Virus genome (UHGV): UHGV-0134521
DNA: 37,102 nt
DNA from: a virus
Reading direction: 5' to 3' (one strand)
The translations under genes were made by a program, and so were the position numbers. The notes under the pieces were generated by a model. It ran no database searches. It was not told where the DNA came from and worked only from the letters and a program-made list of their open reading frames with translations. Position 1 is the stretch's first letter. The number at the start of each line of letters is the position of its first letter. This document shows positions 691 to 34,432 of this stretch, one piece after another.

Positions 691-1743
691 TTACGGGGTA
701 ATGCCAACCGCTGCCGCCACTTTGTCGCCATTTGGTAACGTTGCCAGTGGATTGAAACGGAGCGCCGTTTCCAAATGATCCGGTGCCAGATGCGCATAAC
801 GCATAGTCATTTTTATATCGTGGTGTCCGAGAATTTTTTGTAAGGCCAAGATGTTTCCACCCGACATCATGAAGTGCGCCGCAAACGTATGGCGCAGAAC
901 GTGTGTCAGTTGACCGCGAGGGAGAACGATAGACGTTTTTTCCATCACGGATAAAAATTGAAAATAGCAGTCTGTGAAGAAATTGAACCCATCGAGCGCC
1001 ATGATCTCTTCATAAAGCTCTTTACTGATAGGGATGCTTCTGTTTTTCTTCCCCTTCGTTCTCACAAAGGTGATTCGGTACTTGGTGACCTGTGAGCGGG
1101 TAAGATTGATTGCTTCTCGCCAACGTGCGCCTGTACTTAGACATATTTTTACCACCAGTGCCAGAATTGGGTTCTGACGTTTGCAGTCAGACAGTAATTC
1201 GATGATCTGCTCATGTGTAAGCCATGCCATTTCCTTTTCTGCGATAGTGAATTTGCGCATCTTCTCTAATGGGTTTGGAAGTGTCCATTCACCCAGGCGG
1301 GAAAGTTCTCTGAAAACGCTGCTTAGATGGCTTTGCTCCAGGTTAACAGTAACTGGGCTTGCTCCTTTCTTCCATTTTTCACTGAAGTAGATTTCACCAG
1401 TAAGGCGTTTATCGCGATAGTGAGCAAACATTTTTGAGGTGAGATCGGTTGCAAGGGGATTTCCCAAGGCGTCAACCATCAACAGCAGCTTGCTGTAGAC
1501 ATGCTGTCCGGCAGTAAGAGATTTGCCATGTAATTTGAACCATAGCTCAACCATATCTTTCAGTGTCCGACGATCCACTGATTCGCCCAGCCAGGGCTTT
1601 GCTTCTATTTCACCCATGGTGTATCGCTCGAAGGCCAGTGCTTCGCCTTTGGTGGCGAATTGTTTACGCACACGACGCCCATTACGTCCGGCGGGGTAAC
1701 ATTCGCAAAGCCATTTCCCTGTGGTGAGTTTTCGTACTGCCAT
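691..1743 (-). CDS. int: Tyrosine recombinase / phage integrase (P2 Int-like), about 350 aa
   Basis: C-terminal catalytic motifs (HVLRHTFA..., GHHDIKMTMRYAHL) and N-terminal similarity to P2 Int; ATG at 1743 preceded by GGAGGG; the track ORF to 1899 is an upstream extension. Confidence 0.9.
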   Translation of the reverse strand: MAVRKLTTGKWLCECYPAGRNGRRVRKQFATKGEALAFERYTMGEIEAKPWLGESVDRRTLKDMVELWFKLHGKSLTAGQHVYSKLLLMVDALGNPLATDLTSKMFAHYRDKRLTGEIYFSEKWKKGASPVTVNLEQSHLSSVFRELSRLGEWTLPNPLEKMRKFTIAEKEMAWLTHEQIIELLSDCKRQNPILALVVKICLSTGARWREAINLTRSQVTKYRITFVRTKGKKNRSIPISKELYEEIMALDGFNFFTDCYFQFLSVMEKTSIVLPRGQLTHVLRHTFAAHFMMSGGNILALQKILGHHDIKMTMRYAHLAPDHLETALRFNPLATLPNGDKVAAAVGITP

Positions 1744-1931
1744 AAAAAATGCCCTCCAGTAGAGAGCATTTTCACTGTATGTATAACCAGTGTCAATGTA
1801 TGAAATCCTACGACCATACATCTCACTGAAGCCATAATTAAGTTGGCTATTCTTTTTGCTATGTGAGCATGTAACTTTTGCGGTTAACCTGCGGCTCATT
1901 TTTATTTTAGACGCAGATATAAAAGCAAAAG

Positions 1932-2138: not shown

Positions 2139-2708
2139 CTATTTAACATATTTGACTGTTAAACTTATAATTTTACCAATTATTTCAATGTCTTCTATCT
2201 TGCATTCGAAGGCTCTGTTTCCACCCTCGACGAAGATTCTTCCGCCGGGTAAACGAGTAATGTCACGGATCGTTATTTCGCCATCAATACTTATTACCCA
2301 TTTACCATCACGTATATCATCAAATTCTTTATCACAAATAAATTCAGAATTGTTATCTGTGATGACAAAAGGTTTTTTAAACGTAGAGGGTAGAAATCCC
2401 TTATCAAAAATATAAAAACCGTCTTTCTGCAATGCTCCATCAGACAATAAATATTTTTCTACTTCTATAGTATTTGTATTTGCTGATGCTTGCTTTGAAC
2501 CATGCCCTGTTGTTAGCCAATTAAGCGAGGTGCCTGTTTCAAGGGCGCACTGGATTACCCAATCTGCTGGAAAAATATCACGCATATAGCGCGTTGCCAT
2601 GGTGCTCTTAGAAACACCTAAATGATCACAGAGAGCCTGACGGGTACCGAACCCATATGCTTCAACTAAACGTTCTATGGCTTTCTTACCGCCGCTATTG
2701 AAATCCAC
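2139..2708 (-). CDS. cI: Immunity repressor, CI-like (186-type); probable start GTG at 2708, alternative GTG at 2795
   Basis: HTH segment (TRQALCDHLGVSKSTMATRYMRD); no recognisable LexA-type autocleavage motifs; GGAGGA precedes internal GTG; divergent from the apl-like gene. Confidence 0.65.
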   Translation of the reverse strand: MDFNSGGKKAIERLVEAYGFGTRQALCDHLGVSKSTMATRYMRDIFPADWVIQCALETGTSLNWLTTGHGSKQASANTNTIEVEKYLLSDGALQKDGFYIFDKGFLPSTFKKPFVITDNNSEFICDKEFDDIRDGKWVISIDGEITIRDITRLPGGRIFVEGGNRAFECKIEDIEIIGKIISLTVKYVK

Positions 2709-2853: not shown

Positions 2854-3057
2854 ATGACACCTAACATTTCAATTACTCTGAATACACCACATGTCACAAT
2901 CGAACGTTATAGCGAACTGACTGGCCTTTCTATTGATACGATTAACGACATGTTGGCTGATGGCCGACTACCTCGTCATCGTCTTCGTAAAGACAAAAAA
3001 CGTGAAAAGGTAATGATTAACCTGGCTGCTCTGACTGTTGATGCTTTGTCTGCTTAA
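2854..3057 (+). CDS. Apl/Cox-like small DNA-binding protein (excisionase / lytic-switch regulator), 67 aa
   Basis: First gene of the rightward early operon, divergent from repressor; small basic HTH-like protein; ATG with AAGGAA SD. Confidence 0.6.
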
Positions 3058-3121
3058 TAGACGTCTATTTTCGCAATAAGACGCTGAGTTCGATTTTGCG
3101 ATAAGTTCGGAGTTGAAAACC

Positions 3122-3631
3122 ATGTTTGATTACCAAGTTTCCAAACATCCACATTTTGATGAAGCCTGTCGTGCATTCGCACTGCGCCACAATCTGGTGC
3201 AACTGGCAGAACGTGCGGGCATGAATGTGCAGATTCTGCGGAACAAGCTGAACCCAGCTCAACCTCATTTATTAACCGCACCTGAAATCTGGCTGCTTAC
3301 CGATCTGACAGAAGATTCAACGTTGGTAGATGGTTTTCTGGCACAGATTCATTGTCTGCCATGTGTACCGATTAATGAGGTAGCAAAAGAGAAACTGCCG
3401 CATTACGTCATGAGCGCAACTGCAGAGATCGGGCGTGTTGCAGCAGGTGCGGTATCTGGTGATGTAAAAACTAGTGCCGGTCGTCGTGATGCTATCAGCA
3501 GCATTAACTCTGTAACACGACTGATGGCGCTGGCTGCTGTTTCATTGCAGGCCCGTTTACAGGCTAATCCTGCGATGGCGAGTGCAGTTGATACCGTGAC
3601 TGGCCTCGGCGCTTCATTCGGTTTGCTATGA
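3122..3631 (+). CDS. cII: CII-like lysogeny-establishment regulator (phage 186 CII family), 169 aa
   Basis: [24 protein letters not shown]... closely resembles 186 CII as I remember it; GGAG 9 nt before ATG 3122. Confidence 0.8.
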
Positions 3632-5221: not shown

Positions 5222-6075
5222 GCACCATCCTGAAATGGGCGGGAAATAAAACCGCCATTATGTCCGAACTGAAAAAACATCTTCCTGCTGGCCCGCGACT
5301 GGTTGAACCTTTCGCGGGTTCCTGTGCTGTGATGATGGAGACGGATTACCCCAGCTATCTTGTTGCGGATATTAATCCTGATTTAATCAACCTCTATAAA
5401 AAGATTGTCGCTGATTGCGAAGCGTTTATATCTCGTGCCAGAGCTTTATTTGAGGAAGCAAACAGGGATGTGGCTTATTACAACATAAGGCAGGAGTTTA
5501 ATTACTCCACTGAAATTACTGATTTCATGAAAGCGGTATATTTCCTGTATCTCAATCGTCATGGTTACCGTGGGTTATGTCGCTATAACAAGAGCGGGCA
5601 TTTCAACATTCCGTACGGTAATTATAAAAATCCGTATTTCCCTGAAAAAGAAATTCGCGCATTTGCAGAGAAAGCCCAGCGGGCAACGTTTATCTGCGCA
5701 AGCTTTGATGAAACGCTGGCGATGCTGCAGGTGGGGGATGTGGTGTATTGCGATCCGCCGTATGACGGTACGTTTTCCGGCTATCACACTGATGGTTTCA
5801 CTGAAGATGACCAGTATCACCTGGCATCCGTTCTTGAACATCGGTCATCAGAAGGACATCCGGTCATTGTTTCTAACAGTGACACATCCCTGATCCGTTC
5901 GCTGTATCGCAATTTTACTCACCACTACATCAAGGCAAAACGCAGCATCGGTGTGGCAGCTGGTGAGAGTAAATCTGCAACAGAAATCATCGCTGTTTCC
6001 GGGCCGCGCTGCTGGGTGGGATTTGATCCTTCGCGTGGCGTGGATAGTTCAGCCGTGTACGGAGTACGTGCATGA
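5218..6075 (+). CDS. dam: DNA adenine methyltransferase (Dam-like, N6-adenine MTase)
   Basis: N-terminal KWAGNK...EPFAGSCAV (AdoMet binding) and DPPY catalytic motif; ATG 5218 with ACGGAGG SD, overlapping upstream stop. Confidence 0.85.
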
Positions 6076-8486
6076 GTCATGCCGATATGAACAACTGCTG
6101 CGGCTTTAACGAGGCTGCCGCAGCGTTCTCATGGAACAGCCCGAAAAAGGCCATTAACCCTTATCTGGACCCGGCGGAAGTTGCGCCGGTTTCTGCGCTT
6201 TCAAACCTGATCACTCTGTACGCTGCCGATAACGAGCAGGAACAACTGCGCCGCGAGGCACTGAGTGATCAGGTCTGGGAGCGTTATTTTTTTAATGAAT
6301 CACGTGATCCTGTCCAGCGCGAAATGGAGCAGGATAAGCTCATTAGCCGGGCAAAGCTGGCGCATGAGCAGCAGCGTTTTAATCCGGATATGGTCATTCT
6401 GGCGGACGTCAACGCCCAACCTTCCCATATCAGCAAGCCGCTGATGCAACGTATTGAATACTTTAGCAGCCTGGGCAGGCCAAAGGCTTATTCCCGCTAT
6501 TTACGTGAGACGATTAAGCCATGTCTGGAACGACTGGAGCATGTACGCGACAGCCAGCTATCTGCATCTTTTCGTTTTATGGCAAGCCATGAAGGGCTGG
6601 ACGGCCTGCTTATCCTGCCTGAAATGAGTCAGGATCAGGTGAAGCGCCTGTCTACCCTTGTCGCTGCGCATATGAGCATGTGCCTTGATGCCGCTTGTGG
6701 TGATTTGTATGCCACCGATGACGTTAAGCCAGAAGAAATCCGCAAAACATGGGAAAAGGTGGCAGCGGAAACCCTGCGTCTGGATGTTATTCCGCCTGCG
6801 TTTGAGCAACTCCGTCGGAAAAGAAACCGCCGTAAACCCGTGCCCTATGAACTCATTCCGGGTTCGCTGGCGCGTATGTTGTGTGCCGACTGGTGGTATC
6901 GGAAATTATGGAAGATGCGTTGCGAATGGCGGGAAGAGCAGTTGCGTGCTGTCTGCCTGGTCAGCAAAAAAGCATCTCCCTATGTCAGCTATGAAGCCGT
7001 GATGCATAAACGTGAGCAGCGCCGCAAGTCACTGGAGTTTTTCCGTTCTCATGAACTGGTGAACGAAGAGGGCGACACGCTGGATATGGAAGACGTGGTA
7101 AACGCCAGCAGCAGCAACCCGGCGCACCGCCGCAATGAGATGATGGCCTGTGTTAAAGGTCTGGAGCTTATCGCGGAAATGCGTGGTGATTGCGCCGTTT
7201 TCTACACCATTACCTGTCCGTCACGTTTCCATTCCACGCTCAATAACGGCAGACCAAACCCAACCTGGACAAATGCGACGGTAAGACAAAGCAGCGATTA
7301 TCTGGTCGGCATGTTTGCTGCATTTCGTAAGGCGATGCACAAAGCCGGGTTGCGCTGGTATGGCGTGCGGGTGGCTGAGCCGCATCATGACGGTACGGTT
7401 CACTGGCACCTGTTGTGTTTCATGCGCAAAAAAGACCGCCGTGCCATTACTGCATTGTTGCGTAAGTTTGCCATCCGTGAAGACCGCGAGGAACTGGGTA
7501 ATAACACTGGTCCACGCTTTAAATCTGAGCTGATAAACCCGCGCAAAGGAACACCGACAAGCTACATCGCGAAATACATTAGCAAAAACATTGACGGGCG
7601 TGGTCTGGCTGGCGAGATCAGCAAGGAAACGGGTAAATCCCTGCGTGATAACGCTGAATACGTTAATGCCTGGGCGTCTCTGCATCGTGTTCAGCAATTC
7701 CGCTTCTTTGGTATTCCGGGGCGTCAGGCTTACCGTGAACTGCGATTGCTGGCTGGTCAGGCGGCAAGGCAACAGGGCGACAAAAAAGCAGGTGCGCCGG
7801 TACTGGATAACCCGCGCCTTGATGCCATCCTGGCTGCTGCTGATGCTGGTTGTTTTGCCACTTACATCATGAAGCAGGGTGGCGTACTGGTTCCCCGCAA
7901 ATATCACCTCATCAGAACTGCTTATGAAATTAACGAAGAGCCGACCGCCTATGGCGATCACGGCATTCGTATTTATGGCATCTGGTCACCCATTGCAGAG
8001 GGCAAGATCTGCACTCATGCAGTGAAGTGGAAAATAGTTCGTAAAGCCGTTGACGTTCAGGAGGCGGTAGCCGACCAGGGCGCTTGCGCCCCTTGGACTC
8101 GTGGCAATAACTGTCCCCTTGCTGAAAATTTGAACCAACAGGAGAAAGATAAATCAGCTGATGGGGACCCCAGAACGGACATTACCAGCATGGATGACAA
8201 GGAGTTGCACGATTACCTGCACAGTATGAACAAAAAAGAGCGCCGGGAACTGGCTGCAAGGTTACGCCTGGTGAAACCGAAACGGCGTAAAGACTACAAA
8301 CAGCGAATTACAGACCATCAGCGACTGCAGCTCGTGTATGAGCTGAAGTCCAGAGGATTTGATGGCAGCGAGAAAGAGGTCGATTTACTCCTTCGCGGAG
8401 GCAGTATTCCGTCAGGAGCAGGCCTGCGTATCTTCTATCGGAACCAGCGTTTGCAAGAAGATGATCAGTGGCGGAACCTGTATTAA
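6072..8486 (+). CDS. A: Replication initiation protein A (P2 gpA-like rolling-circle endonuclease), 804 aa
   Basis: Size, position after early genes, ATGA overlap with dam, P2 A-like sequence. Confidence 0.9.
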
Positions 8487-8578
8487 TTACGCGGGTTAAC
8501 AATTCGTGCTCTTAATAATACCAGGCATATCAGGCTGATGAACGTAAAAAAACGTTTTACATCAGTAAGATTATTATA

Positions 8579-8598
8579 TACTGTAAATATAAACAGTG
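8579..8598. promoter_or_regulatory. LexA box (TACTGTAAATATAAACAGTG; CTGT-N8-ACAG) upstream of the small-ORF + DinI-like operon
   Basis: Matches the LexA consensus CTGT-N8-ACAG within an AT-rich promoter-like region about 40 bp before ATG 8640. Confidence 0.6.
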
Positions 8599-8639
8599 GT
8601 TATACATACAGCATTGCGTGTGGTGTCATAGGAGGAAAG

Positions 8640-8828
8640 ATGCAGGACTATTTTTTGGAGTCTTTGAAGCTCCAGCGCATTGATTTTTTTCTTAAGCTTG
8701 TAGCGGCTAGTGAGTGTAGTGATGAAGAGAAGGGGCTGGCTCTGCAGTGGGTTTCTGAATTGACTGATGAACTCATGGCAAAAATCAGAACCCACGAATA
8801 CAACCGCTCAATGGATGTCATCAGCTGA
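8640..8828 (+). CDS. Small protein, 62 aa, first gene of the LexA-controlled operon (possible Tum-like antirepressor component)
   Basis: ATG at 8640 after GGAGGA; immediately downstream of the LexA box. Confidence 0.5.
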   Translation: MQDYFLESLKLQRIDFFLKLVAASECSDEEKGLALQWVSELTDELMAKIRTHEYNRSMDVIS

Positions 8829-8838
8829 GGTGACTTTT

Positions 8839-9072
8839 ATGCGCATTGAAATAATGATCGATAAAGAGCAGAAGATTAGCCAGTCTACCCTGGACGCCCT
8901 TGAATCCGAGCTTTACCGCAATCTGCGCCCCCTGTATCCCAAAACGGTAATTCGCATTCGCAAAGGTAGCTCTAACGGTGTGGAACTAACCGGACTGCAA
9001 CTGGACGAAGAAAGAAAACAAGTGATGAAAATTATGCAGAAGGTGTGGGAAGACGACAGCTGGCTGCATTAA
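8839..9072 (+). CDS. DinI-family protein, 77 aa
   Basis: MRIEIMIDKEQKI...WEDDSWLH resembles E. coli DinI (MRIEVTIAK...W...DDWF); GAGGTGA SD. Confidence 0.7.
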   Translation: MRIEIMIDKEQKISQSTLDALESELYRNLRPLYPKTVIRIRKGSSNGVELTGLQLDEERKQVMKIMQKVWEDDSWLH

Positions 9073-9207
9073 GAAACGTTGCTGGCGTCTGAACTTGCTT
9101 CTGGCGTCAGCAAGGTTGAACAACGAGCCCTTGCGAGGCGTTAACTCTGTAGTGCATGTCTATGCCGCATGAGATCGCATGATCGTTTGAGGATCGTTTT
9201 TGCTAAG

Positions 9208-9231
9208 GCCCGCCAGAACTGGCGGGCTTTT
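9208..9231 (+). terminator. Rho-independent terminator after the DinI-like operon
   Basis: GCCCGCCA / TGGCGGGC stem with short loop, followed by TTTTG. Confidence 0.55.
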
Positions 9232-9276
9232 GCGTAGATCATGCAGGTGCATGAAAACCACTACATAAAGCGGGCA

Positions 9277-9365: not shown

Positions 9366-10022
9366 ATGAAAGAAAAAATGATAAATGAAATGCCATCGGC
9401 CCATATTAAGCAGTTAAGGGCCAAAACTGGTTTAACTCAAGAGGAATTTTGCGAGACTTTCGGTCTTAATCTCAACACCTATCGTCATTGGGAGAGGGGG
9501 GATAGAAAACCAACTGGCTCATCATTAGTTTTGCTAAAACTTATTGAGGAGTCTTTTCACGAAGTGCTATCAATTATGAAAAAAATCAAGGGGGATGGTC
9601 CAATAATGTCAGATGGTAAAACACTTATACTTAAATCACTTGAACAAGATAGATTTTTCACTTTTGAACGTTTTGTAAAAGAAAGTTCTTTTTTTTCTGC
9701 GGATGCCATTTGTGCTCTTATTAAAGCTAATGGTTTTCCTTATGTTTATTTTTCAAATAACCAAGGGGAACTTGTATTTTCAGCAGGTTATGAAATTGAA
9801 GATATGAAAGAAGTGTTCTGGGTCAAGAATGATGATAGAACATATGGTGGATCTCTCAAAACTGTCGTTGAAAAAACTTATAGTTCAATCTATGCGATAG
9901 AAGTTGACCTGCAAGATGCTGTTTATTGGACTCCGGAAATGAGAAACTCAAGAATAGTCGATATTACCGAGAAAACAGGAATTGAACGTGACTTTTTTAA
10001 CAATATTTTAAGGAATTGGTAG
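9366..10022 (+). CDS. Cassette gene 1: XRE-family HTH domain (HigA/MqsA-antitoxin-like) fused to a ~160-aa C-terminal domain of unknown function
   Basis: N-terminal KQLRAKTGLTQEEFCETFGLNLNTYRHWERGDRKPTGSSLVLLKLIEE is a typical XRE HTH; ATG 9366 after GAGGG; AT-rich. Confidence 0.65.
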   Translation: MKEKMINEMPSAHIKQLRAKTGLTQEEFCETFGLNLNTYRHWERGDRKPTGSSLVLLKLIEESFHEVLSIMKKIKGDGPIMSDGKTLILKSLEQDRFFTFERFVKESSFFSADAICALIKANGFPYVYFSNNQGELVFSAGYEIEDMKEVFWVKNDDRTYGGSLKTVVEKTYSSIYAIEVDLQDAVYWTPEMRNSRIVDITEKTGIERDFFNNILRNW

Positions 10023-10023
10023 T

Positions 10024-10695
10024 ATGCGTGGTAAACTAATCAGCTTTGAAGGTATTGATGGTAGTGGGAAAGGAACTCAATCGAAGCTGCTTTTCGAAAA
10101 ACTAAATGCAATAGGGGAAACGGCAAAGCTATTTAGTTTTCCTTGTTACGAGAATACTTTTTTTGGAAAAGAAATAGGTGCATTTTTGAGAGGTGAATTT
10201 GGCGGGATTAATGATGTACATCCTAAACTCGCTTCAATTTTATACGCAATGGATCGTTTTGAGAAAAGGCAAGAAATTGTAAGTTCCTTAGATCAAGGAA
10301 TTGTAGTAATTTGTGACCGTTATGTCGATTCTAATATCGCGCATCAATCGTCTAAACTTGCAGTTTCTCAGCAGAAGGAATTTATTGATTGGGTTAGTGC
10401 ATTAGAATATGAATTTAATAAAATGCCTGTGCCTGATTTAACATTTTTCCTGAATGTTCCTTTGGATATTTCAAAGGAAATGGTACTGAAGAAGAAAAAA
10501 AGAAGCTACACTGACTCCGAAGAAGATATACATGAAAGAGCATATGATTATTTAGAAAGAGTATTGTTAGCATACAATAAAATTGATTTCGGCACGCGCT
10601 GGAACTTAATTGAGTGCTGTAATAATAATAATCTGATGGATCCTGAGTCAATAAGTGATTTAATATTTAAAATTGTCATGAAAGGGCTTAGATAA
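10024..10695 (+). CDS. Cassette gene 2: thymidylate-kinase-fold P-loop NMP kinase-like protein, 223 aa
   Basis: FEGIDGSGKGTQ P-loop-like segment, CDRYVDSNIAHQS (Tmk DRY motif) and PDLTFFLNVPLDIS (Tmk PDLT motif); start 1 nt after gene 1 stop. Confidence 0.7.
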   Translation: MRGKLISFEGIDGSGKGTQSKLLFEKLNAIGETAKLFSFPCYENTFFGKEIGAFLRGEFGGINDVHPKLASILYAMDRFEKRQEIVSSLDQGIVVICDRYVDSNIAHQSSKLAVSQQKEFIDWVSALEYEFNKMPVPDLTFFLNVPLDISKEMVLKKKKRSYTDSEEDIHERAYDYLERVLLAYNKIDFGTRWNLIECCNNNNLMDPESISDLIFKIVMKGLR

Positions 10696-11615
10696 TGCAC
10701 GAGTTGTTGAGAAAAAAACACTCTAGGAATAGTTTCATTACTCTATTTGTTATAGTTGTAACATTAATACTGCTTCTTCGGTATGCTGTACTTCCTTATT
10801 TTTACCCTCCACAATCAACTGATTTTGGGGGCTTTATTGCGACATTATTAAATGGGCTATTTTCATCCTTAACAGTAACCTTCTTGATCGGTTTATTTAT
10901 GTTTTGGATTCAGCCGAAACCTGAAAATTATGCTAAAATAGAAATTGCATATCCTAAAGAATTACCAGAACTTTTCAATGTTGCGTTCCTTAAAACGGAA
11001 ATTTGGTATTATAAAGGTGGATGTGGAAGATATTTTAGAACAGCTACGTTACCAAATATGGCGAAACAGGCTAGATCAAAGTCACAGTCAAAAGAAATTT
11101 TGGTTGTTATCCTTGATCCAACTAATATTGATTTATGTGAAAAACACGCTATTTACAGAAGTGGTACAGCATCACAAGAAATTGAAATTAGGCCTTGGAC
11201 AACAGAGGAAGTTCGCGCTGAGTTGTTTGCAACGATTATTACAACGCTAATTACTCAAGCCAAAGAACCTTCATTAAGAATAAAATTATCATTATGCCCT
11301 CACTATTCATCTTTTAGGATAGATTTATCAGATGATTACGCTATTATTACAAAGGAAGATCGCAATTCTCCGGCCATTATATGTCATAAGGGGACTCATT
11401 TTTATAAATCTTATAAAGATGAAGTAATTTTGTCTCTAAACCAATCACGTAGTGTTCGTATGATAGATCAAGTTGATTTTACTCTAAGAGATATTGATGG
11501 CACGAAAGTTAAATCTTTGTTATCTGATGCTGGTTTAGATGATAACAATCTCACGCCGACTTTCTATGACAAGGTCGCGTCGTTATGTAAAGAGGCGAAA
11601 AATCCATATGCATGA
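10695..11615 (+). CDS. Cassette gene 3: membrane protein with two N-terminal transmembrane helices and a ~230-aa soluble domain, 306 aa
   Basis: Two hydrophobic stretches near the N-terminus (FITLFVIVVTLILLL; LFSSLTVTFLIGLFMFWI); start overlaps gene 2 stop (TAATG). Confidence 0.6.
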   Translation: MHELLRKKHSRNSFITLFVIVVTLILLLRYAVLPYFYPPQSTDFGGFIATLLNGLFSSLTVTFLIGLFMFWIQPKPENYAKIEIAYPKELPELFNVAFLKTEIWYYKGGCGRYFRTATLPNMAKQARSKSQSKEILVVILDPTNIDLCEKHAIYRSGTASQEIEIRPWTTEEVRAELFATIITTLITQAKEPSLRIKLSLCPHYSSFRIDLSDDYAIITKEDRNSPAIICHKGTHFYKSYKDEVILSLNQSRSVRMIDQVDFTLRDIDGTKVKSLLSDAGLDDNNLTPTFYDKVASLCKEAKNPYA

Positions 11616-12246
11616 TTATATGAATGAAATCTATCAAAAAATAACTAATAAAGAATCGTTCGATGTTAAACGTTTCTTTACTTGCTTGGTTGATAATTTT
11701 GATAATTTTGATCCTACTTGGCATGCATTGGGATTTATTCATTGCCGTTTAGCTCAGAATGATCAAGGGACTTTACGCTTACATATTTGGTTCAAAAATG
11801 ATTCACATCCTGCTGAACAGTTAGAAAAAATTCATGATCATAAATTCTCGTTGAATAGCTATGTGTTGTACGGTGCAATATGTAACGAGGTTTTTGAACT
11901 TATAGAAACGTCATCTGGAAAATATGATTACCAGGCCTATGCAGTTAAATATCTTGATAAAGGTTCAGAGTTAATCCCTTTAGCCACTTATTATAATGTT
12001 AGTGATGTATCTTCAAGTATAATAAGGGCTGGTTGTTATTATACGGTTGACTCCAGAGAGTTTCACCGATCATCACTTGTAAATAGTGAGATGGCGATAT
12101 CACTAGTGGCGACTTTTGAGCATAAAAATAAAGACCCTTTGACTTTGGTATCTCATGGGGGGAGTGAGTTTAAAATAAGAGATAAGGTTCCATTTGATAA
12201 GAACAAATGGGTGGAGATATTAAAAGAATACATATCAAAATTATGA
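11608..12246 (+). CDS. Cassette gene 4: hypothetical soluble protein, ~212 aa
   Basis: In-frame ATG at 11608 overlapping gene 3 stop by 8 nt; His-rich segments; no family recognised. Confidence 0.55.
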   Translation: MHDYMNEIYQKITNKESFDVKRFFTCLVDNFDNFDPTWHALGFIHCRLAQNDQGTLRLHIWFKNDSHPAEQLEKIHDHKFSLNSYVLYGAICNEVFELIETSSGKYDYQAYAVKYLDKGSELIPLATYYNVSDVSSSIIRAGCYYTVDSREFHRSSLVNSEMAISLVATFEHKNKDPLTLVSHGGSEFKIRDKVPFDKNKWVEILKEYISKL

Positions 12247-22954: not shown

Positions 22955-23849
22955 CCTTTCGCAGTTGCCTGCACCGCAGATTGTGGATGTGCCGGACTTT
23001 GAGACGCTGCTTGCCGAACGCAAAGCAGAATTTGTGGCGCTTCATCCGAAAGATGAGCAGGAAGCCGTGATCCGCACGCTGGAACTGGAATCTGAACCCG
23101 TCACTAAATTGTTGCAGGAGAACGCTTACCGTGAGTTGCTTCTGCGCCAGCGCATTAACGAAGCCGCGCAGGCGGTGATGGTGGCTTACGCGATGGGCGG
23201 CGATCTTGACCAGCTCGCTGCTAACTACAACGTGATACGCCTGACGGTGACGCCTGCTGATAATGATGCTGTGCCGCCCGTTGCAGCTGTGATGGAAAGC
23301 GATGAAGCGTTACGCCTGCGTGTGCCTGCAGCCTTTGAAGGGCTTTCTGTTGCGGGGCCCACTGCTGCTTATGAATTTCATGCCCGAAGCGCCGACGGTC
23401 GGGTGGCGGATGCCAGTGCAACCAGTCCGGCTCCTGCAGAGGTGGTGCTTACGGTCCTAAGCCGTGAAGGCGACGGAACAGCAGAAAAAGACTTGCTGGA
23501 TGTGGTGGAGAAAGCTCTGAACAGTGAGAACGTCCGCCCGGTTGCTGACCGTCTTACGGTTCGCAGCGCAGAAATCATCCCGTATCGCGTGGAAGCCACC
23601 ATTTTTCTCTATCCGGGACCGGAAGCAGAGCCGGTAATGGCAGCGGCAAAAGCCAGTCTGCAGAAGTACATTGCCAGCCAGACGAGGCTTGGTCGGGATA
23701 TTCGCCGTAGCGCCATCTTTGCTGCTCTGCATGTTGAGGGTGTTCAACGTGTGGAACTGGCTTCTCCGCTGGCGGATGTGGTCCTGAACAAAACACAGGC
23801 GGCATCATGTACGCAGTGGAGCGTAACCAACGGAGGAACGGATGAATAG
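22941..23849 (+). CDS. J: Baseplate assembly protein (gpJ-like)
   Basis: ATG 22941 after GGAG; P2 J-like. Confidence 0.85.
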   Translation: MAVIDLSQLPAPQIVDVPDFETLLAERKAEFVALHPKDEQEAVIRTLELESEPVTKLLQENAYRELLLRQRINEAAQAVMVAYAMGGDLDQLAANYNVIRLTVTPADNDAVPPVAAVMESDEALRLRVPAAFEGLSVAGPTAAYEFHARSADGRVADASATSPAPAEVVLTVLSREGDGTAEKDLLDVVEKALNSENVRPVADRLTVRSAEIIPYRVEATIFLYPGPEAEPVMAAAKASLQKYIASQTRLGRDIRRSAIFAALHVEGVQRVELASPLADVVLNKTQAASCTQWSVTNGGTDE

Positions 23850-24447
23850 TCTGCTGCCACCGGGTTCAACTTCACTGGAGCGCCGACTGGCGCAAACCTG
23901 TAGCGGGATTTCTGATCTGCAGGTGCCGCTGCGTGACTTGTGGAATCCGGCTGCCTGTCCGGTCAGCTTCCTGCCTTATCTCGCCTGGGCGTTCTCTGTG
24001 GATCGCTGGGACGAGGGCTGGACAGAAAGCGTCAAACGCCAAGTAGTGAAGGATGCTTTTTATATTCATCAGCATAAAGGAACCACCAGTGCCGTGCGGC
24101 GGGTGGTGGAACCGTTCGGATTCCTGATCCGCATTATTGAGTGGTGGCAGACCGGAGAAACACCGGGCACGTTTCGCCTGGATATCGGCGTGCAGGACCA
24201 GGGCATCACTGAAGATACCTATCTGGAACTTGAGCGGCTGATAAGCGATGCCAAACCATGTAGCCGTCACATGATCGGCATGTCCATCAATCTGCAGACC
24301 AGCGGTCCGCATTGGGTGGGGGCCGCCAGCTATCTTGGCGAAGAAATCACGATCTATCCGTATATCAACGAAACAATTATTTCTGGCGGCACCGCGCATG
24401 AAGGCGGGGCGGTCCATGTTATTGACACAATGAGAGTGAATCCATGA
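23842..24447 (+). CDS. I: Baseplate / tail protein (gpI-like)
   Basis: Position and overlap pattern; P2 I-like. Confidence 0.85.
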   Translation: MNSLLPPGSTSLERRLAQTCSGISDLQVPLRDLWNPAACPVSFLPYLAWAFSVDRWDEGWTESVKRQVVKDAFYIHQHKGTTSAVRRVVEPFGFLIRIIEWWQTGETPGTFRLDIGVQDQGITEDTYLELERLISDAKPCSRHMIGMSINLQTSGPHWVGAASYLGEEITIYPYINETIISGGTAHEGGAVHVIDTMRVNP

Positions 24448-34262: not shown

Positions 34263-34288
34263 TAAATTTCAGGCAACAAAAAACCCAC
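34263..34288. repeat. attR: 26-bp direct repeat (TAAATTTCAGGCAACAAAAAACCCAC)
   Basis: Pairs with 591..616, one mismatch. Confidence 0.65.
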
Positions 34289-34432
34289 CAACCTTGAACC
34301 GAAATGGCGGGGTTGATGGGCTCCACAAAATGGGGACATCAAAGAAAAGCAGTGGCACTAATTAAGACTGATGCCCTGCGGAAAAGTTCTGCGGTTGTGC
34401 AAAAAAATTTCATTTTCAGGGCAACTTCAGTT

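Follow-up and report, generated by a model that had tools for sequence, protein, structure and literature searches.

Within the window, by which we refer to the whole 37,102-nt stretch of DNA that was analyzed, two small genes lie on the plus strand just downstream of the replication gene A and on the same strand as that gene. We refer to these genes as tumA and tumB, after their relatives in other phages, and to the two together as the tum operon. The operon is preceded by a putative promoter that coincides in part with a LexA (SOS) box and is followed by two hairpins. The features of the operon and its immediate surroundings are as follows:

8556..8561, plus strand: -35-like hexamer TTTACA of the tum promoter (sequence reading; counterpart of the annotated -35 TTCACA of the coliphage 186 promoter p95)
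8579-8584, plus strand: putative -10 of the tum promoter, TACTGT, formed by the left arm of the LexA box (sequence reading and the layout of 186 p95)
8579..8598, plus strand: LexA (SOS) box TACTGTAAATATAAACAGTG (consensus match and conservation across phages; a putative LexA site is annotated in 186)
8640..8828, plus strand: tumA homologue, encoding a 62-aa acidic two-helix protein, a predicted CI antirepressor (PHROG profiles, hhalign, identity to Fels-2, codon pattern and AlphaFold2)
8839..9072, plus strand: tumB homologue, encoding a 77-aa DinI-like protein (Pfam DinI and identity to Tum/TumB)
9079..9113, plus strand: hairpin without a U tract, just 3' of tumB (RNA fold; position as that of the 186 partial terminator t95a)
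9205..9232, plus strand: intrinsic-terminator-like hairpin, a GC stem followed by TTTTG (RNA fold and sequence)

The operon is part of a ~33.7-kb prophage of the P2/186 family, Fels-2-like, which is found in an E. coli host at rybB. The prophage is bounded by an 18-bp direct repeat, AGGCAACAAAAAACCCAC, with one copy at 599-616 and the other at 34271-34288. As the right copy and the 3' end of the RybB sRNA gene (34275-34353, minus strand; Rfam, 104 bits) overlap, the prophage is integrated in rybB and regenerates the 3' end of this gene. In the window, the order is integrase, cI, an Apl/Cox-like gene, CII, early genes, A, the tum operon, a cargo island and the capsid, lysis and tail genes. The latter are of P2 type and collinear with those of Fels-2, with a DNA identity of 75-86%, and the prophage, flanked by its att repeats, looks complete. 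The position of the tum operon after A is the same in 186, PSP3, Fels-2 and 813R9. Rfam returned nothing in the tum region, and the search for tRNAs found none. The genes outside the operon that are considered below are:

691-1899, minus strand: integrase
2139..2708, minus strand: 186-family CI, the immunity repressor (189 aa), on which TumA presumably acts (Pfam Phage_CI_repr and Phage_CI_C, alignment to 186 CI, PDB 2FJR)
2854..3057, plus strand: Apl/Cox-like excisionase-repressor, 67 aa, divergent from cI (translation; position as in 186, Fels-2 and 813R9)
3113..3631, plus strand: 186-type CII (CP76; Pfam Phage_CP76, E 3.4e-42)
6072..8486, plus strand: replication gene A, gpA (Pfam Phage_GPA, E 9e-128)

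The start of tumA was set at the ATG at 8640, which lies 41 nt downstream of the LexA box and is preceded by the ribosome-binding site AGGAGG (8630-8635). A longer, 96-aa reading of this ORF, starting at 8538, was rejected, as it would begin upstream of both the promoter and the LexA box and as annotated relatives are of the 62-aa form. The second gene, tumB, has the ribosome-binding site GAGGTG (8826-8831) and begins 10 nt past the tumA stop codon, in a different reading frame. When the window was compared with SopEPhi, 20 of the 32 differences in tumA and 23 of the 35 in tumB fell at third codon positions; the corresponding numbers for Yersinia phage MLG42 were 22 of 35 and 24 of 36, and in both comparisons the differences were mostly synonymous. 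This concentration at third codon positions indicates that tumA and tumB are both translated and under purifying selection. Two minus-strand ORFs that overlap the region (8574-8795 and 8648-8821) were rejected, as the differences from relatives follow the codon positions of the plus strand.

TumA is nearly the same protein as STM2728 of Fels-2, with 61 of 62 residues identical (98.4%). Its relationship to coliphage 186's Tum, on the other hand, is visible only with profiles, and BLASTP yielded no alignment between the small ORF and 186 Tum. Searched against profiles, TumA matched phrog_698 (E 3.6e-38), phrog_8554 (E 2e-8) and phrog_1993 (E 2e-3), while residues 1-70 of 186 Tum matched phrog_1993 (2e-23), phrog_8554 (3e-12) and phrog_698 (6e-6) at the same profile positions as the small ORF. 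We also used hhalign to compare a profile made from six small ORFs of Fels-2 and ESSI-2 type with a profile of the N-terminal half of 186 Tum together with PSP3 TumA. Residues 4-46 of the former aligned with residues 4-47 of the latter at an E-value of 3e-5, although with a probability of only 73.5%. By these comparisons, and at the profile level only, TumA and the N-terminal half of 186 Tum are remote homologues.

TumA carries 12 acidic and 7 basic residues, and its AlphaFold2 model predicts a helical hairpin (helices 2-23 and 28-61) with a mean pLDDT of 90. A Foldseek search with this model returned only generic helical hairpins, all at E-values of at least 1.3, and a sequence search of the PDB with TumA gave no related solved structure. 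Neither Pfam nor NCBIfam holds a family that matches TumA, and PADLOC gave no match for TumA or TumB. The 482 TumA-homologous clusters that were found are all unnamed or 'hypothetical', and a literature search for 'TumA/TumB' returned only unrelated uses of the word.

For the second gene, the assignment is more direct. Its product had been described as DinI-like in the initial annotation, and it indeed matches Pfam DinI with 81 bits (cut-off 24) and an E-value of 6.6e-23. It scores only 42.7 bits with the NCBIfam equivalog model for the chromosomal DinI of E. coli, for which the cut-off is 111. TumB, being above the first cut-off and below the second, should thus be considered a phage TumB-type DinI-like paralogue and not an orthologue of the host DinI. 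TumB is 100% identical to STM2726.1 of Fels-2 and 78% identical to TumB of PSP3. The initial annotation had also proposed that both ORFs be aligned to 186 Tum, and this comparison proved informative: TumB aligns with Tum residues 71-145 (41% identity, E 3e-24) and TumA, as described above, matches the N-terminal half by profiles only. Taken together, the alignment of TumB and the profiles shared by TumA and Tum indicate that each of the two ORFs corresponds to one half of 186 Tum and that the halves are here carried by distinct genes.

The window contains a single CTGT-N8-ACAG motif, at 8581-8596. It should be noted that this minimal motif is weak when considered alone, as 0.4 occurrences are expected by chance per window. 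The complete 20-mer, TACTGTAAATATAAACAGTG, is more telling, as it has 3 mismatches to the E. coli SOS-box consensus, TACTGTATATATATACAGTA, and as none of 100 dinucleotide-preserving shuffles of the window contained a match as good. The hexamer TTTACA precedes TACTGT with a spacing of 17 bp, and this geometry matches that of p95 in 186, a promoter that was characterized experimentally and is annotated with the -35 TTCACA, the -10 TACTGT and a LexA site that starts from the -10. According to the 186 record, p95 drives SOS-dependent transcription of the SOS operon, the LexA site itself being annotated as putative. A generic sigma-70 promoter scan called no promoter at the tum operon, because the -10 is here the LexA half-site TACTGT, which agrees with TATAAT at 3 of 6 positions. 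As the box overlies the -10, LexA bound to the box would occlude this element.

We considered the sequence upstream of tumA or tum in nine phages, namely the window, 813R9, Fels-2, SopEPhi, Yersinia MLG42, ESSI2_ev015, ESSI-2, PSP3 and 186. The LexA box is found at the same promoter position in all nine, with 1-4 mismatches to the consensus, and a TT(T/C)ACA-like hexamer lies at promoter distance before the box in 9/9, whereas the flanking bases have diverged. The TumA identity to the window across these nine box-bearing phages ranges from ~21% to 100%. The consensus-like LexA box that the initial annotation placed in the promoter region of a two-gene operon is upheld by the match to the 20-mer, the shuffles, the p95 geometry and this conservation. 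A second, degenerate LexA-like site, CAGTGGTTATACATACAGCA (8594-8613, plus strand), has 6 mismatches and shares 5 bp with the main box; its counterpart in SopEPhi is perfect in the right half and has 4 mismatches in all. This site may be a weak tandem box or merely a conserved 5' leader.

The repressor that TumA is presumed to target is encoded by cI, the probable start of which is the GTG at 2708, picked from the ribosome-binding site GGAGGA and from the starts of aligned relatives. The window CI is 33% identical to 186 CI over the whole length, covering both domains, and matches the solved structure of 186 CI (PDB 2FJR) with an E-value of 2e-31. There is no Ala-Gly or Cys-Gly dipeptide in the window CI, and its match to Peptidase_S24 is below threshold (16.1 bits with a cut-off of 23.3, E 0.009). 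The missing dipeptides and the sub-threshold match suggest that this CI is not a self-cleaving repressor of the LexA or lambda-CI type. On both counts relating to this region, the initial annotation was correct, as it had described a CI-like repressor with no recognizable cleavage signature and a 186-type CII, which is the CP76-family gene listed above. In the phage collection, no CI comes closer to the window CI than 57% identity. Immunity regions 99.5% identical to that of the window are present in E. coli chromosomes. Two observations on other repressors of the family can be added. The CI of PSP3 (286 aa; 23218-24078 of PSP3) contains two tandem CI-type HTH domains, and in the Klebsiella phages 4LV2017 and ST340-VIM1phi10.2, the CI frames run upstream into a second '...EWLAFG' HTH-like segment.

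That 186-family prophages undergo SOS induction by way of a LexA-repressed antirepressor is knowledge that dates from the 1980s and 1990s. The p95-tum-orf97 region of 186 itself resembles the window in having a LexA box over the -10 downstream of A, a non-cleavable CI of the same family, Apl and CII. The main difference is that in 186, both halves are fused in a 146-aa Tum, while in the window they are separate genes in different frames. Shorter products also arise from in-frame internal starts in the 186 tum gene, and the smallest of them, which comprises the 76 C-terminal, DinI-like residues, is annotated as 'modulates SOS induction'; in the 186 record, only full-length Tum is annotated as inhibiting DNA binding by CI. 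Directly after tum, 186 has a partial terminator, at the position that the hairpin at 9079-9113 takes in the window. Further downstream, 186 carries orf97, whereas the cargo of the window is apparently different, with no orf97 equivalent seen. Recent work on 186 describes induction as a sequence in which SOS derepresses p95 and Tum then sequesters CI (PMC7708051).

The arrangement with two genes is likewise already known, and is the 'split tum' seen in PSP3 and Fels-2; in both phages, tum is described as split in two by a stop codon (Lemire et al. 2011, PMC3121763). PSP3 carries the two genes tumA and tumB downstream of gene A and behind a LexA box with 1 mismatch to the consensus. In the PSP3 record, the 60-aa tumA product is described as 'similar to 5' end 186 tum; UV induction of prophage' and tumB as 'similar to dinI and 3' end of 186 tum'. 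PSP3 nonetheless differs from the window in several respects: its TumA is only ~22% identical to that of the window, its LexA box lies 20 nt from the start codon as compared to 41 nt in the window, and its CI is a 286-aa protein with a duplicated HTH domain, unlike the 189-aa CI of the window.

Fels-2 of Salmonella LT2 is the closest of the described systems, with STM2728 and STM2726.1 at the same place after gene A and behind an identical 20-bp LexA box. From A to tum, the Fels-2 DNA is ~83% identical to the window. The two prophages differ in CI, the HTH domain being 71% and the C-terminal domain only ~28% identical, and in the downstream cargo. Fels-2 carries the 243-aa STM2726, which is equal in length to 186 orf97, and another gene, whereas the window, in an E. 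coli host and at the site rybB, carries an HTH/dTMP-kinase-like island instead. In 2002, Bunny et al. reportedly traced the lethality that lexA null mutations have in Salmonella to the tum homologue of Fels-2. As the module of the window is near-identical to the Fels-2 system (98% for TumA, 100% for TumB), it should be regarded as already known and ordinary. As a discovery, it thus carries little weight, the split tumA/tumB form having been described for both Fels-2 and PSP3.

A more distant likeness is offered by the dinI-gfoA/gftA genes of Gifsy-1/2/3 and by AntC of N15, in which a LexA-repressed small antirepressor, linked to a dinI homologue, acts against a non-cleavable repressor (PMC3121763). 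As that paper describes them, these systems differ in that the gene order is reversed, with dinI first, and in that both the antirepressors and the repressors are lambdoid.

From the sequence features, homologies and box conservation observed here, we consider it very probable that the region is a LexA-controlled tumA-tumB SOS operon of a Fels-2/186-type prophage of the P2 family, with TumA serving as the antirepressor and TumB as an accessory protein. The mechanism would be as follows, where LexA binding, the binding of CI by TumA and the role of TumB are taken by analogy from 186, PSP3 and Fels-2. In the lysogen, host LexA bound at 8579-8598 would cover the -10 and keep the operon off. Upon DNA damage, RecA-stimulated self-cleavage of LexA would allow tumA and tumB to be transcribed. 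TumA would then bind the non-cleavable 186-type CI and keep it from its operators, and the removal of CI would derepress the early lytic promoter, such that the prophage is induced. TumB, as a DinI-like accessory, would probably modulate RecA and the SOS response rather than CI. The 186-type SOS induction through a LexA-controlled antirepressor that the initial annotation had predicted agrees, in silico, with the CI family, the homologies to Tum and the conserved box.

The division of roles between the two proteins should be considered with some care. The active antirepressor might instead be a complex of TumA and TumB, in which the fused Tum is re-created, or TumB itself could act by way of RecA; we regard these options as unlikely. 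A complex would be in line with the situation in 186, where the halves form one polypeptide, where only the full-length form is annotated as acting against CI and where the shorter forms are said to modulate SOS induction. It would also be in line with the finding that tumA and tumB are adjacent, and 10 nt apart, in all Fels-2-type phages examined. Yet in PSP3, it is the upstream gene that is reported to carry the antirepressor activity, as stated in a personal communication that is cited second-hand (Lemire et al. 2011, PMC3121763). Moreover, in ESSI-2 and ESSI2_ev015, which possess the LexA box and a TumA-like ORF, that ORF is followed by a gene in the opposite orientation, and no DinI-like gene lies downstream. 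As these phages keep the box and TumA without a DinI gene, they argue for TumA being the essential part and TumB an accessory. In the Gifsy phages, non-polar deletions of dinI had no significant effect on induction (PMC3121763). The TumA-like ORF of ESSI-2 and ESSI2_ev015 is 70-74 aa long, has a Gly/Ser-rich tail and is unannotated in the ESSI-2 record.

With TumA as the preferred antirepressor, its match to the particular CI of this prophage has to be considered. As the C-terminal domain of the window CI is only ~28% identical to that of Fels-2 CI, and as the best relative of the whole protein is 57% identical, it is a presumption that this TumA acts on this CI. The comparison of the two proteins across phages revealed a clear difference between the CI domains. 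TumA is 98-100% identical in phages in which CI is only 38-57% identical overall. In every phage with a TumA at least 84% identical to that of the window, the HTH domain of CI (residues 6-70 of the window CI) is 71-83% identical, as compared to only 24-43% for the linker and C-terminal domain. In 186, PSP3 and the ESSI-2 types, where TumA is 20-49% identical, the identity of the CI HTH domain drops to 42-58%. Across 13 phages, a sample that is small and phylogenetically non-independent, TumA identity correlated with HTH-domain identity with a Spearman coefficient of 0.89, but not with C-terminal-domain identity (coefficient 0.38). The length of the CI linker, as a separate observation, varies by ~18 residues among phages with the same TumA.

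This pattern fits the hypothesis that TumA acts on the DNA-binding domain of CI, a site of action that agrees with the influence Tum is known to have on operator binding. One can go further and tentatively propose that Fels-2-type TumA is a generalist antirepressor that recognizes the conserved HTH domain of 186-family CIs whose C-terminal domains have diverged, a proposal that we consider possible but would not favor. The same pattern would also result from a common descent of the phage backbone together with recombination events within cI. If the proposal is true, one SOS-induced TumA could cross-induce co-resident Fels-2-like prophages of different CI types, the 'antirepressor crosstalk' of the Gifsy type would be extended to the P2 family and the surface at which Tum binds CI would be located. 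Phages with identical TumA and with CIs that share only the HTH domain thus offer a hypothesis that is cheap to test, both for the Tum-type binding site and for cross-induction between prophages.

The same comparison bears on another reading, according to which the operon is SOS-controlled but mismatched with this CI following modular recombination, so that it would be a DinI-type moron or would act on co-resident prophages only. Such a mismatch is suggested by the immunity region of the window, which has no nucleotide match to Fels-2 while the A-tum region matches at ~83%, and by the window CI, whose identity to the CIs of phages with an identical TumA does not exceed 57%. However, the conservation of the HTH domain wherever TumA is conserved, at the side of a diverged C-terminal domain, fits a conserved target of TumA. 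In addition, this CI region and the tum module form a frequent combination in E. coli (562 genomes with the immunity region at a coverage of at least 80%, and 1125 with the tum module), and the prophage looks complete, with att repeats on both sides. We therefore hold a mismatch to be improbable, slightly more so than a joint action of TumA and TumB. Finally, the reading in which the LexA-like palindrome matches by coincidence and both ORFs are constitutive or otherwise regulated can practically be dismissed, since, despite the chance expectation of the minimal motif and the promoter scan that called nothing here, the 20-mer was not equaled in the shuffles, is conserved in nine phages with diverged flanks and has the annotated LexA site of 186 p95 as its counterpart.

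The LexA-controlled tumA-tumB operon is widely distributed. Of 5426 complete E. coli genomes, 1125 (~21%) carry the tum module, which was also found in 66-67 phage records, from phages of Klebsiella, Salmonella, Escherichia, Yersinia and Cronobacter. Although the module is thus present in about one fifth of complete E. coli genomes, Fels-2-type TumA is named 'hypothetical protein' in every source examined. Naming TumA would let annotation pipelines predict the SOS-inducibility of P2-family prophages. In Klebsiella phage 4LV2017 and its relatives, where TumA is unannotated, the region corresponding to 8480-9260 matches in two pieces that are spread across ~1.5 kb, which points to an insertion of ~760 bp within or beside the tum operon.

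Downstream of tumB, the hairpin at 9079-9113 would be the counterpart of t95a, its role being suggested by the position of the partial terminator in 186, and the SOS operon likely ends at the terminator-like hairpin at 9205-9232. The non-coding stretch 9073-9260 (plus strand) folds more stably than its shuffles (z = -3.3) and is kept at 95-99% identity in phages with different downstream cargo. This stretch may be the boundary of a recombination hotspot. Between the tum terminator and the portal gene lies a variable cargo island (9366-12246, plus strand), which is absent from Fels-2 and 813R9, where other genes are found in its place. The island encodes an HTH/MqsA-like protein of 218 aa, 306-aa and ~235-aa proteins with no family match or only an unnamed one, and a dTMP-kinase-like protein of 223 aa that scores above the TIGR00041 cut-off and for which PADLOC gave the candidates PDC-M51B (2e-10) and VakA (2e-5). 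The island may thus represent anti-phage cargo in a hotspot of the P2 family.
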